Shown: positions 35,795-49,250, counted from the first letter of the stretch. The stretch: DNA of 64,000 nt from Bacilli bacterium (GCA_900770645.1 CAAGKY010000102.1:1053-65052), one strand, 5' to 3'. The notes: generated from the sequence alone by a model not told the origin. Numbers and translations are program-made.

Positions 35795-35815
35795 TTAAAT
35801 TTTAGAAAAATTTAT

Positions 35816-35831
35816 TGTATAATATAATAAT
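35816..35831 (+). promoter_or_regulatory. extended -10 promoter (TTGTATAATATAAT)
   Basis: Consensus-family copy preceding the RNA island. Confidence 0.45.
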
Positions 35832-36083
35832 CGGTATGGTGCATTCGTTAAATATCATCCTAAATTAATGGGTGCACTTGGCATCAATAAGTCAACCTCC
35901 ACGTGGTGATGCTGGATAATAAAAGGAGTCATGACCTTTTAAACTAATGACTAATAGTGTATGTAAACAGACACGAAGTATACAGAGAAGTGTTCGTCAC
36001 CTTGGCTAGATTGCGCGGAGCAACTGTAAGACCGAGGTCAGGGTAAGCTCGGCCGTTAGACCCAATACACTATTTATTTATTT
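35832..36083 (+). ncRNA. candidate structured ncRNA between the Ro60-like gene and tRNA-Met, a second Y-RNA-like candidate
   Basis: ORF-free and GC-elevated. Local hairpins CGAGGTCAGGGTAAGCTCG and CCACGTGG. Promoter upstream. Confidence 0.25.
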
Positions 36084-37804: not shown

Positions 37805-37977
37805 ATTAAAAAGAGATTAAGTCTTTTCTTGCGTTAATAAAAGCAAGTGGTGCCCGAAGAGAGTTTCCAATGATCTTTCACTAAAACATTGGTGGTGGAA
37901 AGGACATGGATTCTGCAGCGTGTCTTTCCGGTTTACTGCAGAGTTAGATTGTTAGCTATTAATAGTTAACAATTTAC

Positions 37978-38170: not shown

Positions 38171-38227
38171 GCCAAAAATAAAAATAATTTAAAATTTATA
38201 AAAATATTAAAAATTATACTGTTTATA

Positions 38228-38245
38228 TTGTATAATATTATGTAA
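38228..38245 (+). promoter_or_regulatory. extended -10 promoter TTGTATAATATTATGTAA
   Basis: Consensus copy upstream of the intron-containing tRNA. Confidence 0.5.
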
Positions 38246-38332: not shown

Positions 38333-38625
38333 AGGGGCTTCGTACAACGGCAGTACATCGGTCTTTTTGAAAAAACAGTGGCCAACCACTTATGGAGCAC
38401 CTAGTTGGAAACATCTAGTGTGAATGCTGGCTAATTCGGCGAAGGTTGGAGAACGCCGAGCTAAGTGGAAAGTAATTTCCTAAATGTGTAGAGACTATAC
38501 ACCAGCTACCTAAACAGAAATGCACGGTAAAGACATAGTCCACTAAGATTAACGTATTCTTATGTCAAGAACTAACTTCTTAGGCAAAACCGCGAATGTG
38601 GGTTCGATTCCTACAGCCCTTACCA
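38333..38625 (+). tRNA. tRNA gene interrupted by a group I intron of about 220 nt; anticodon unresolved (Lys or Leu candidates)
   Basis: 5' exon: acceptor AGGGGCT, D-arm GTAC-AACGGCA-GTAC, anticodon stem TCGGT. 3' exon: T-arm GTGGG-TTCGATT-CCTAC, acceptor AGCCCTT plus ACCA. Interior carries group I P7 elements R-like GTAGAGACTATAC and S-like AAGACATAGTCC. Confidence 0.55.
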
Positions 38626-39538: not shown

Positions 39539-40048
39539 ATGCCTAAATATAGAGTAAAATATACATTTGAAGTAGAAGTTGAAGCTCCAAATAAAAATAT
39601 TGCAAAAATTAATGCTGATTATCATTTAGATAATGACCTTGACGAATATTATTTATGGGATTATGAAACACATACCGAAGTTGTTGAGTTAGAAGTTCCA
39701 GAAGATTTAAAAGAAGAAATAGAAACAGGTAAAGATATCGCATTGAGCTTTGAATTCAAAGATAATTATGATCCTATTACCGATGAATTTGTAGCAGATG
39801 AATTCATTAAAGATGAAAATCTTAGAAAAATGATTTGGCCGGAAGATGAAAATAAAGTTTTTCTTACTGACGATTCTGAAGTAATAGAAATAAAAGACAT
39901 AAAAACAAAAAAACCATCTGAGTTATATGCACAACGTATGCATATGAGTGGGATAAAATATACTTGTACAGATTGTCCCGATTGTGTCAAATGTAAATAT
40001 GCTTTTGATGACTATTGCACAGATGGTGATTGTTTAATGGAAAAATAA
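39539..40048 (+). CDS. acidic protein with a C-terminal Cys cluster
   Basis: GGAGAAATAATTATG. C-terminus CTDCPDCVKCKYAFDDYCTDGDC. Confidence 0.5.
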   Translation: MPKYRVKYTFEVEVEAPNKNIAKINADYHLDNDLDEYYLWDYETHTEVVELEVPEDLKEEIETGKDIALSFEFKDNYDPITDEFVADEFIKDENLRKMIWPEDENKVFLTDDSEVIEIKDIKTKKPSELYAQRMHMSGIKYTCTDCPDCVKCKYAFDDYCTDGDCLMEK

Positions 40049-40082
40049 ATTCTAAAGTCACTAAATCTTCAGAAAAAATTAT

Positions 40083-40098
40083 TGTATAATATTATGGT
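40083..40098 (+). promoter_or_regulatory. extended -10 promoter (TTGTATAATATTATGG)
   Basis: Consensus copy directly upstream of an ORF-free, GC-elevated segment. Confidence 0.5.
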
Positions 40099-40099
40099 A

Positions 40100-40510
40100 T
40101 ATATCTCCTGGCAGTGCTGGGTAAGTGGCCAATTGGATGAAACTCGCTGGTGCGACCCCAATTACGGCAAGGTATATAGGAGAAGGAAAACTCCTCAAAC
40201 CAGCCTTGACTTCGTGTTAAGGTCTTGGACAACTCGAGTGTCGAGTGGGTGTTAACAGCCCTTATAAGGAATGATTGTGGCAGGGGCCACTCCTTCGTGG
40301 ACATTCCCTATATAAAGTGTTAATTGCCCCCACGTAGGGCTCGACTAAGTATGGATAGTTACAAATCATTGCCCGCTGCTTGGTCAATTTGTGTATATAT
40401 CGAGAGGCTTGATGTATACCAACCTAGCACTAACACTATTACTTGGGTAGGGTCTATGCGACCTTCGCCTTCAAAATTATTAAATGCGCGCGGTGTTAGT
40501 GCTTCTTTGT
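40100..40510 (+). ncRNA. candidate structured ncRNA of about 400 nt (unknown family)
   Basis: Promoter-driven. GC-elevated. No credible ORF. 5' motif TCTCCTGGCAGTGCTGGGTAAG recurs at 48723. Many short GC stems. Confidence 0.4.
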
Positions 40511-40637
40511 AATAAGCATAGATAAAAAACAATATTATAGTAATGGTGAATGAAATAGTATTGGAAACCTGTAAGACTAAGTTATATTAAACTTGATAGT
40601 TTCTTTGTCTATGCTTACTAGAAAGAGAGACTAGTGT

Positions 40638-40865
40638 ATGAAGCTAACTAAAAGAACAATAAAAAAATTAGAAAAGAAATACAATAAAGAAGCTCAAAAG
40701 GAAACTAGAAAAGTAGTTGTTTGTAAAGACTGTGGAAACTTATTTCCTATTGAGGAGACTTATATTGAATTTGATCTACAAACAAGTGAAAAAGAATTTC
40801 AATGTCAATATTGTAATGATAAAGAGCCTAAGGGCACATTAGAAGATTTACTAAACGCGGTATAA
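40638..40865 (+). CDS. small zinc-ribbon protein
   Basis: CKDCGN...CQYCND motif. Confidence 0.5.
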   Translation: MKLTKRTIKKLEKKYNKEAQKETRKVVVCKDCGNLFPIEETYIEFDLQTSEKEFQCQYCNDKEPKGTLEDLLNAV

Positions 40866-45499: not shown

Positions 45500-45690
45500 T
45501 AATTTTCCTACTTAAGGCTGCTGTACAGAGTCTTAGACAAAAGAAAATGCAAGGTGAAACCTATTTCTAGCAGGTTCTAATTGGGGAGTAGCCACCTATA
45601 TGATCAATTAGTTTTCTGGTGAGAACAATCCGCTGCAGCTAGGACATCTAGGCAGGTTCAATTCCTATATTGATCACTTAATTTATATTC
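45500..45690 (+). ncRNA. candidate ncRNA with a degenerate tRNA-like 3' module
   Basis: ORF-free. Perfect 7-bp acceptor-like pairing GATCAAT...ATTGATC flanks a TTCAATT T-loop-like motif. No anticodon arm. GCTGCAGC palindrome. Confidence 0.3.
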
Positions 45691-45854
45691 ATTAAACTAA
45701 TATAGCGTTTTTTAGAAATTATATTATTAATTTCATCATATAGGCGTTCTTATATGATTAAGAGAAGATTCTTTAAAATAATGATAAATCATTATTTATT
45801 TTGTTAATTTGTTTCACACAGAGTATATTAGTTTAATTTTTTTGAGGTAATTAA

Positions 45855-47077: not shown

Positions 47078-49250
47078 TCGGATCGTACTCTAGAAATCTT
47101 CGGAACTAGGGTTAGCAATTATGCTTAAAATAATCGCGCCACAGGTTGTGACAGGGGTGGTTGTACGAAGAAGCAGGTGTACGTAAAATAACCAAGGATT
47201 ATTAAGATGAGTCAGTGCGGACCACCTGAGGGTTGAAGAAGGCATGGAATAACCATTGGTCTTAATAATGAATTACAAAAACCAGTAATACCACAATGGC
47301 CGTAAACCGTATACGACTCTGGTTGAAGTAGGAGGCACATCGCTGAAATGCGAAGTTAACAAGTAAAAACGGTTTGAGTCAGGGTGATATCTGACAAGTA
47401 CCAGGTGGTAATGGTCATATTGTATAGGTTTTTAATAAGTTTATACTATACAAAATTATGGAGTATTATAAGTTTTTATAGCACCCCTATAAAAAGAGGC
47501 CCTTATAGTACAGAATTATAAAATAACTTAATAGTCGTTGAAAGTGGTATCCATCGGCTGGGATTGAATAGAGTTATAAGATACCCTCTATTCCGGATAC
47601 GTTTAAGGGTAAGACGATAACGAGGCCTATTATTTGGCTAATAATAGGGAAAACCCTTTTGGATCATACTTTAGTTTCTTCGGAGCTAAGGTTTTAAAAA
47701 ATTATTGGGCTGGGCGAAAGCTCTTGGTCCACCAACGACGGGGAATTGCCTCGTCTGGTGTTCAGCGAAAGCTGATAAGTTTATTAAGGGCGAAAGGTGT
47801 TGCGACACCAAGTAGCGATATACACGAGGTTGCGGAGATGCATGTGCGACTCATACAACACCGGCAGGGGGCTAGTTTAAGAGTACAATACCGCTCAGTG
47901 TATAGCTAGGCAACGTAAGTTGTAACAGATAATTCGAGAGTGGTAGAATTTTTGGGTTATCTTAAACGTATTTCTGCGGCAGCAATTGAGCTGTTCTAAG
48001 GAATATAAGAGTATTCAATATGTGTCATGGAGAATACTGCATTTAGGTGTTAGGAACGGACTGTAAGTAAGAAGACAGTATCAGAGATTTAACGACTGAT
48101 TTAGACTTCTTCTCCCTGACTAATTAAATGGAGTGTGATGAACAGCCTAAAATTGTTAAACGGTTCGGGTATACATCGAGAGTATACATTGCTAATCTGT
48201 GGATTAGTTATCTTATTAGTTTCCTGTTCATTTGTGAATTGAGGTAAAGCAATAAGCAAAAGCTAATAATTTTGATCACTTACCGTTGGTGAGATGTGAC
48301 CTCCACTTGGTTGATAACTAGAGTGGCATTAAACTGCCGAATGACTATTCCTTGGGCCAAGGATACGGAAACCTCAGAAGCGGAAATCGCTAACCGTGAT
48401 TGTCATTGCACGTCGGAAACCCTTTTCCGTAAAATTGGGGACTTAATAGTAACTAGGTTAAAAAACTACTATTGATGTCGCGTATCGTCAGCCGATCTAG
48501 TAGGCTTGTGTTAGTACTAACAGGGACGCTCTCTGTAATCCTACAAGCGATAGTAGGTAATTTTATTATAGTGGCTTTTGTATTAGACATTAGTTATTTA
48601 TAATAAAATTTATAACAAGTGTGGTTTCTACTATAAGTGAGGCCAACTAGCAGTAAGTCTAATTTTATATTTAGGATGTCGACAGATATAGATTAGCAAC
48701 TAGTATATATTTCTATTATTATATAATTCCTGGCAGCGCTAGGTTTAGCAAAGTTGAACGTAAAAAGATGGGTGTCTCAGTTCTAAGAAGTAAGTTATAT
48801 AAAATAGAAATTTGTAGACTTCTCCATCAGGCCTCTGCCTTTTGGTATGCACACTTGATGGCGATCTGCCAAATAGATCCATACACGCCGCCATTGTTGT
48901 TTTTGGGTTAATGTACTATTGAGCATGCAGGTCTTTGGACTTCAGTAGAGTTAACTCTGTGGTAATAAGTCTGTTTGTCAGACTCGGCGTACCATGTATG
49001 GCCATTTAATGCTCTTCAGGCAGTCTGTAAGAGTAGTATAGTAGTAAATTTTCTTCCCGCACCTCGGCAAGACAGCGAGACAGTTTGTGCATGTGCCCCA
49101 GGGAAGCAGAGCTTGATATCTCTATCGTCTCAAAAGTTATCCGTAACATTGAGCGCAGGTAAGCTAATTTAGTCTTGACCTGGACCGTGATAAAAACTTC
49201 CTTTACGTGAATGAGGACCTGACTGAGGATATGTTAGAAGTCAGAGCGCT
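47078..49250 (+). ncRNA. about 2.1-kb ORF-free, GC-elevated segment between tRNA genes: candidate giant structured ncRNA(s) or intron
   Basis: No ORF over 91 aa in any frame even allowing TGA. The two track ORFs (47634..47909, 48975..49172) lack an RBS and end at TAG. GC clearly above the genome background. Multiple GNRA-type hairpins (ACGGAAACCT, AGCGGAAATCGCT, CGGAAACCC). Internal promoter-like TATATAAT at about 48700 followed by TCCTGGCAGCGCTAGG. Confidence 0.45.

Follow-up and report, generated by a model that had tools for sequence, protein, structure and literature searches.

A predicted structured RNA gene displaying an mRNA leader-type hairpin in the RNA and translation island of large phages from herbivore guts

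Results and discussion

Genomic setting of the locus

The 64,000-nt stretch of DNA analyzed here, hereafter the window, is AT-rich (~28% GC) and carries nearly all of its genes on the + strand. ARAGORN found 12 tRNA genes, the nearest of them ~2 kb upstream of the candidate RNA at 40.1 kb, and the proteins encoded in the window include a Ro60/TROVE protein with 57% identity to gp540 of Bacillus phage G, a DFP-type flavoprotein, a class-I Trp/Tyr-type aminoacyl-tRNA synthetase (aaRS) and the ribosome hibernation factor HPF. The locus is a large-phage “RNA and translation island”. The first gene 3' of the candidate RNA encodes a 75-aa zinc-ribbon protein and opens an operon that also includes the aaRS and HPF genes. 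Between the RNA and the start of the aaRS gene lie 2.6 kb with six ORFs of at least 56 aa.

Contigs related to the window were found only in gut metagenome assemblies, from ENA and Logan. As judged from their sequences, these phages appear to form a small clade of large, AT-rich phages sampled in the gut metagenomes of ruminants and other herbivores, tied to Bacillus phage G through Ro60, and the cow-rumen, yak, sheep and roe-deer sources of sequences sharing one element point to a herbivore-gut Clostridia phage. For several of the relatives L007-L013, L021 and L023 the called gene does not match the query translation, while the ORFs are intact in translation table 11; the probable cause is a difference in start codon or gene call.

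Promoter and extent of the candidate RNA

The promoter consensus of this phage, TATTGTATAATATTATG, occurs in 24 copies with at most 3 mismatches, compared to 2.2 expected, and 21 of these are on the + strand. Only four copies are perfect (33809, 38226, 40080 and 45479), and they precede tRNA-Lys, a split tRNA-Cys, the candidate RNA and an ORF-free stretch at 45.5 kb. The last of these stretches is GC-rich and located at ~45500-45850. A promoter-like -10 element is kept in all homologs of the candidate RNA, and the transcript is expected to start at ~40097-40099, immediately after the perfect copy. From 40098 to ~40512 only short, unconserved ORFs of at most 70 aa were found, and the GC content of this stretch is 0.43-0.50 vs. 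0.25-0.30 in the flanks. The features predicted at the locus are as follows.

40080-40096 (+), promoter of family D1, a perfect TATTGTATAATATTATG copy found by consensus scan, with the -10 box TATAAT at 40085-40090
40098-40179 (+), 5' module, predicted from covariation at Ha and Hb, alignment, minimum free energy (MFE) fold and covariance model R1
40099-40106 with 40170-40177 (+), AU-rich closing helix H1, 8 bp
40107-40121 (+), hairpin Ha, the 17-nt motif, CCUGGC-AGU-GCUGGG
40128-40168 (+), variable hairpin Hb, a 29-nt insertion in the window, L013 and L015 types that the L012 type does not have
40179-40203 (+), leader-type hairpin H2, GGAG-AAGGAAAA-CUCC (stem 40179-40194), then UC and AAACCAG
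40200-40330 (+), conserved core H3-H5, predicted from RNAalifold covariation; R2 gives this core 187 bits, and its L015 counterpart 144 bits
40200-40228 (+), H3, a long hairpin with a UUCGU loop
40232-40246 (+), hairpin H4
40247-40330 (+), H5, a three-way junction that contains another UUCGU loop and, at 40288-40300, the invariant CACUCCUUCGUGG
40331-40512 (+), variable 3' domain H6-H8, replaced in the L015 lineage and with a ~140-nt insertion in the H8 loop of L013
40426-40436 with 40492-40503 (+), long-range terminal helix, followed by UCUUUGU at ~40504-40510
40513-40637 (+), AT-rich spacer of 125 nt to the next gene, 90-96% conserved

No canonical intrinsic terminator is listed at the terminal helix. 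The spacer beyond it holds a weaker promoter-like sequence, ATATTATAGTAATGG, and an inverted repeat (40514-40522 with 40609-40617), and it may be part of the same transcript as the RNA.

Conservation and distribution

Relatives were fetched with the 169-aa protein encoded upstream of the RNA, and their contigs were then inspected. The RNA is present in six distinct sequences, namely the window, L012, L011, L020, L007 (identical to L008-L010) and L013, and a distant lineage, L015 (identical in L016-L019), retains the 5' 230 nt only. Nucleotide identity to the window is 92-94% for the RNA and 90-96% for the spacer, compared to mostly 82-89% for the flanking coding sequences, with 98% in one downstream comparison (L013); in most comparisons the RNA is conserved above the level of the neighboring genes. 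The copies differ by indels of 1, 5, 29 and ~140 nt, lengths that exclude a coding reading in any genetic code. Translation under another code is ruled out by these indel lengths together with the compensatory pairs described below.

Searches further afield returned no additional copies. The RNA is absent from the contigs of the divergent flanking-protein relatives P0012, P0011, P0013 and P0015, and neither nhmmer nor the covariance model detected a homolog in the Ro60 relatives L004 and L005 or in the corresponding region of phage G (L006). A “distant” blastn search with the candidate against 50,697 phage records gave no match. In IMG/VR the 17-nt motif produced only chance matches in GC-rich coding sequence, a 24-nt core block produced 0 matches, and the upstream protein and the aaRS as queries produced no relatives.

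Structure and covariation

RNAalifold predicted 11 helices in the 5' domain (~230 nt), with 69 pairs and 98.6% of the alignment cells paired. Seven pairs are changed on both sides, compared to 2.2 +/- 1.1 in column shuffles (0 of 500 reached this number) and 0-1 when the partners were slid by 1-3 columns. In H2 the compensatory change is from GGAG/CUCC to UGAG/CUCA in L015 (G-C to U-A, pair 84:99); H3 and the motif hairpin Ha each show C-G to U-A, Hb also covaries, and one pair of the H5 hairpin appears as G-C, A-U and U-A among the homologs. With six distinct, closely related sequences available, most of the covariation comes from the L015 and L012 lineages. Single-sequence folding gave z values of -2.7 and -2.6 on the two strands, which does not tell the strands apart, and many of the conserved pairs are G-U pairs workable on the + strand only. 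No pseudoknots were identified in the candidate.

Apart from the compensatory change in L015, H2 is invariant, and it is followed by UCAAACCAG. The invariant CACUCCUUCGUGG in H5 resembles the anti-Shine-Dalgarno (anti-SD) tail of 16S rRNA and complements the loop of H2 (UCCUU with AAGGA), and the two could make an intramolecular SD:anti-SD-like contact; such pairing would be without covariation because both sides are invariant.

The sequence-only reading had proposed a promoter-driven non-coding RNA (ncRNA) gene of about 400 nt at this position, and the consensus promoter, the lack of a conserved ORF and the covarying helices all support that proposal. We take it to be a genuine and apparently undescribed structured ncRNA of ~410 nt on the + strand. 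It is modular: its 5' module is duplicated, and its 3' domain is swapped or expanded between lineages.

Comparison with known RNA families

All 4227 models of Rfam 15 were run at gathering thresholds on the whole window and at E<=10 on 39900-40700. The sequence-only reading had named an Rfam/Infernal search as a check; the candidate matches no family, and only two spurious miRNA matches (15-19 bits) were returned for it. ARAGORN, run with and without its intron option on 40050-40560, found no tRNA-like domain, and there was no match to the Rfam tRNA clan; ARAGORN rules out tRNA, tmRNA and intron-containing tRNA as readings of the candidate.

Several other identities were rejected. For a group I intron, no Intron_gpI match was obtained, although that model does detect the true intron of L043, and the flanking ORFs are complete. 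A T-box leader would be expected to match an Rfam T-box model, of which there was no match, and the aaRS gene is 2.6 kb away instead of directly downstream. A resemblance to the signal recognition particle (SRP) RNA, in the pattern GGUCAGGU...GAAGGAA...CAGCC of the L012 type, is not conserved in the window type, and no Rfam SRP match was found.

A leader motif matching H2

JGI metagenomes were scanned with AAGGAAAACTCNTCAAACCAG, a 20-nt block that does not vary in the RNA, and 20 loci were obtained, of which none is a homolog of the whole RNA. Their arrangement is the same in every case: a TTGACA/TATAAT promoter and, ~10-15 nt on, a AAGGAAAA-loop hairpin, AAACCAG and a purine-rich, AAGG-type SD-like stretch. 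An ATG lies within 13-17 nt of the scan block in 19 of them, the remaining locus (L027) having no nearby ATG. A hidden Markov model of the leader block found several copies per contig, and 51 loci came from a degenerate scan in which each GTDB species was represented by one genome, mostly in Clostridia metagenome-assembled genomes (MAGs) from the guts of ruminants and other herbivores, with Acutalibacteraceae, Oscillospiraceae, Christensenellales and Lachnospiraceae among the groups represented.

Altogether, 124 distinct copies of the leader motif were collected from rumen Clostridia phage and MAG contigs (L025-L098, e.g. L051:2080-2106, L066 and L071). The stem is 3-5 bp long, and the two positions beside its closing G-C are paired in 96% of the 124 instances with 3-4 pair types, compared to 45-56% with slid partners. 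From the closing C of the loop it is 4-9 nt to AAACCAG, and AAAGG comes next in 108 of the 124. The genes behind the motif are diverse and of early-gene type, encoding exonuclease, nucleotidase and small unknown proteins. An Rfam search of the 20 leader loci and one leader instance found no such family. The window shares only two proteins with the leader loci, a membrane protein (298-780) and an HNH endonuclease, and neither is informative on what reads the leader.

In four contigs of 244-254 kb and 31% GC (L032:8958-8989 on the - strand, L046:315-346, L038 and L042) the leader lies before the gene of a 383-aa protein with a match to a transposase PHROG and an IS110-like-looking motif, GIGPVLAAG.

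The stretch 40179-40203 of the candidate has the same features as these leaders, with a covarying, G-C-closed stem, the AAGGAAAA loop (40179-40194) and AAACCAG at 40197-40203, and it is the only copy of the motif in the 64 kb of the window. H2 with AAACCAG is an exact instance of a widespread 5'-leader motif of rumen Clostridia phage mRNAs. It differs from the other leaders in its position, being ~80 nt from the predicted transcript start vs. ~10-15 nt after the promoter, and it is followed by neither an SD nor an ATG; the CCAG runs on as CCUUGAC into H3.

Known cassettes offer a partial parallel. PeSL cassettes combine a promoter and a stem-loop before early genes of T4-type phages, and STAB-SD is a 5' SD-like stabilizer known from Bacillus cryIIIA. 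The leader motif is likewise a multi-copy promoter-hairpin-SD cassette before early-type genes, with an SD-like AAGGA loop, but the likeness covers the H2 element only, and sequence and host range differ.

A second copy of the 5' module at 48.7 kb

The 5' part of the candidate recurs inside a 2.1-kb region (47080-49250), which is ORF-free throughout and lies between tRNA-Ile and tRNA-Leu genes. Being bounded by these tRNAs, the region is probably released by tRNA processing. The following features are relevant here.

48720-48802 (+), second 5' module, with an AU closing helix, the hairpin CCUGGC-AGC-GCUAGG and a variable insert; R1 match
48164-48212 (+), second short shared element, GGUAUAYAUCGAGAG..., with 88% identity over 50 nt to part of the L013 insertion
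48570-48879 (+), the 310-nt segment around the second module, found in the window and the identical contig L022 but missing from the relative L024

The sequence-only reading had noticed a common 5' motif at the two sites. Both copies are present, TCCTGGCAGTGCTGGGT at 40106-40122 and TCCTGGCAGCGCTAGGT at 48728-48744, their starts having been placed off by 1 and 4 nt. With 3 mismatches allowed, the motif pattern occurs exactly twice in the 64 kb, a number reached in 0 of 100 shuffles. It corresponds to a hairpin, CCUGGC-AGY-GCURGG, with 6 bp and a 3-nt loop, within an ~80-nt 5' module. The covariance model of this module, R1, was built from homologs of the candidate only, and when run on the 64 kb it assigned 31.3 bits to 48720-48802 (rough E ~3e-5), the next best match scoring 12.7 bits. 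The AU closing helix of the two copies shows changes on both strands in the R1 alignment, and both have the same architecture in their MFE folds. A shared 5' element, as had been suggested, is accordingly well founded, and the similarity goes beyond the 17-nt motif.

The other parts of that suggestion fared less well. The motif had been described as lying a few nt after a TATAAT box at both sites, and a box is indeed found upstream of each, but at 40085-40090 it is 15 nt before the motif and at 48722-48727 it directly abuts it. The latter aligns with the 5' strand of the candidate's closing helix (ATATATCT, 40099-40106), not with its -10 box, and the 48.7-kb site holds no member of the consensus promoter family TATTGTATAATATTATG. 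In the aligned model an RNA helix with this TATAAT as its 5' strand is a better reading than a promoter. Similarly, the start of an ORF-free, GC-elevated stretch holds at 40.1 kb, whereas 48723 is internal to the ORF-free region.

Alignment of the two RNAs, pairwise and structural, recovers the ~80-nt module as common ground but no homology further downstream. In blastn the candidate matched 47080-49250 over 25 nt (84%, E=0.007) and nothing else convincing, and beyond the module nhmmer and blastn found nothing but the 15-nt GGUAUAYAUCGAGAG (40392-40406 vs. 48168-48182). With the core model R2 (154 positions) the candidate itself was the only match in the window, and none was obtained in 47-49.3 kb. 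The idea of two members of one RNA family fails on this point, a single 15-nt piece being all that the two RNAs have in common downstream of the module. The element at 48164-48212 sits in 48148-48272, another segment absent from L024. Taken together, the module repeat, the L024-absent segments and the L013 insertion indicate that these RNAs exchange small structured modules and do not constitute one family, and the 2.1-kb region is a mosaic of insertable structured modules. Rfam, run on this region as well, gave a DUF3800-XI RNA match (47706-47752, +; 53.6 bits vs. a gathering threshold of 37.8) and a weak cow-rumen-3 match at 47608-47733.

Other RNA elements upstream

The island contains further RNA elements upstream of the candidate. 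At 38333-38625 (+) the intron option of ARAGORN revealed a tRNA-Cys(GCA) whose anticodon loop is split by a 219-nt intervening sequence, and which is missed by default ARAGORN and by Rfam, including the group I intron model. A perfect promoter lies upstream (38226-38242), an ACCA end is followed by a terminator hairpin, and the split gene is conserved in L020:3795-4166 and L012:543-892.

A GC-rich, ORF-free stretch at 35833-36075 (+) follows the Ro60/TROVE gene and a promoter copy (35813-35829) and lies just before a tRNA-Met gene. Within it AAUAGUGUAU (~35955) can pair with AUACACUAUU at the 3' end (~36065). Rfam, run on 35.7-38.7 kb, gave no match for this stretch, which from its position and predicted pairing seems a better Y-RNA candidate than the 40.1-kb RNA. 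Between tRNA-Leu and tRNA-Met, at 37820-37906 (+), there is a sub-threshold match to the wcaG RNA (27.7 bits vs. a gathering threshold of 42, E=0.019), a motif described from marine phage and cyanobacterial metagenome sequences.

Possible function and alternative explanations

On balance, and with slightly better than even confidence, we read 40098-~40512 (+) as an independently transcribed, highly structured ncRNA gene of no described family. A mechanism can be sketched tentatively. The RNA would act in trans as a stable scaffold displaying the SD-like leader hairpin; the scaffold would bind the leader's own partner, be it a leader-binding protein or the anti-SD tail of the 30S subunit; and translation or early-gene expression would be modulated during infection. 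SD:anti-SD pairing is established, and the H2 loop, (G)AAGGA, could pair with UCCUU(U) of the 16S 3' tail as the leader SD AGAAAGG does. Loop and flank hardly vary among phages that range from 31 to 53% GC, which suggests a common trans-acting reader and favors a stable RNA that presents the hairpin to it, and a trans-acting role in translation fits the operon neighbors, i.e. the TrpRS/TyrRS-type synthetase and HPF, as well as the tRNAs and Ro60. Protein-sequestering decoys are known among RNAs such as CsrB/RsmZ and 6S, and CsrB shows GGA-containing hairpin loops like those next to SD sites; the candidate is similar in displaying an mRNA-leader motif on a separate ncRNA. Known decoy RNAs usually have several binding sites, however, and the single leader-type hairpin of the candidate counts against a decoy. 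A CsrB-like decoy as such was rejected, there being one hairpin and no enrichment of GGA (~7 in 400 nt by a rough count, near expectation). The trans-acting scaffold or decoy step, including partner binding and the effect on expression, may well not hold, and we put it forward as a tentative proposal. A bolder form of it, which we consider quite improbable, is that the RNA is a molecular mimic of a pan-phage leader, by which the scaffold of a jumbo phage would capture the factor that reads the early-gene leaders of co-resident phages.

The main alternative, conceivable though unlikely, is that the RNA is a long cis-acting 5' leader, in which case a ~540-nt unit (40098-40637) would be the 5' UTR of the operon running from the zinc-ribbon gene to the aaRS and HPF. 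H2 would then keep its normal 5'-UTR role, and the structured RNA would be a stabilizing or regulatory insert, e.g. an attenuator or a read-through control. Elsewhere H2 is always a 5'-UTR element 13-17 nt before a start codon. Conservation of the spacer equals that of the RNA, and the L015 copy passes straight into the ribosome binding site of the next gene (GGAGG) with no promoter in between, both of which suggest that the RNA may be the 5' part of an mRNA; besides, the terminal helix is atypical as a terminator, and L007 shows tight packing of the genes from the RNA up to those of the aaRS and HPF. Against this, the spacer has a conserved promoter-like sequence, ATATTATAGTAATGG, stand-alone RNA genes are what the other perfect-consensus promoters drive, there is no match to a T-box or riboswitch model, and the downstream gene varies by lineage (75 aa vs. 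186 aa) while the 5' domain is kept.

The remaining explanations are weaker than a cis-acting leader. GOLLD is ~800 nt long. That the candidate is a large ornate, self-assembling phage RNA of the GOLLD/ROOL kind, a companion of the tRNA cluster with an incidental leader-like hairpin, seems doubtful. As a large multi-helix orphan RNA with a three-way junction, of rumen origin and encoded near tRNA genes in a phage RNA island with 12 tRNAs, it resembles ROOL (581 nt) and GOLLD, which frequently occur in phages and close to tRNAs (Weinberg et al. 2017, PMC5737381). It nevertheless matches neither Rfam model, nor any other, at E<=10, is shorter at ~410 nt, shows neither multiple multistem junctions nor pseudoknots, and carries an mRNA-leader-type hairpin. 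A mosaic of selfish or mobile RNA modules, such as remnants left by intron-like or insertion elements with no phage function of their own, would account for the gain and loss of modules (the 29-nt insertion in Hb, the ~140-nt L013 insertion matching 48164-48212 and the L024-absent module copy) and would be in keeping with the 219-nt insert in tRNA-Cys 1.5 kb upstream. We find it very improbable, the 5' domain being constrained more than the neighboring genes and its helices kept by compensatory changes, with no host gene interrupted and no group I or II intron signal. The least credible of the alternatives is a Y-RNA-like partner of the phage Ro60 encoded 4.3 kb upstream. A Ro60/TROVE or DUF2828 gene does lie within a few kb of the RNA (2.7-4.7 kb upstream in the window, L020 and L015), and Y RNAs, which are 80-130 nt long with a long stem of the 5' and 3' ends and a tRNA-like T/D-arm domain, are known from phages (PMC4201824). 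The candidate, at ~410 nt, is three to four times too long for a Y RNA (YrlA), has no T-arm by ARAGORN, no Rfam match and no stem of its 5' and 3' ends with a recognizable Ro60 site, and a better-placed stretch directly follows the Ro60 gene (35833-36075).

Conclusions

The independently transcribed ncRNA favored here would add a new, covariation-supported RNA family from uncultured rumen jumbo phages; large structured phage RNAs such as GOLLD and ROOL are rare and usually pointers to new biochemistry. The leader motif is absent from Rfam 15 and widespread in the phage and MAG DNA of gut Clostridia. Should the RNA prove to be a mimic of it, host translation would be redirected, or competing phages and prophages shut down, so that the RNA would be a tool of inter-phage competition, and a widespread, undescribed leader motif and its reader would be exposed. 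The binder of H2, once found, would explain a regulatory cassette common in rumen phages and, at the same time, what the RNA is likely to do. The locus also illustrates how phage RNA islands may evolve by the shuffling of small structured modules.
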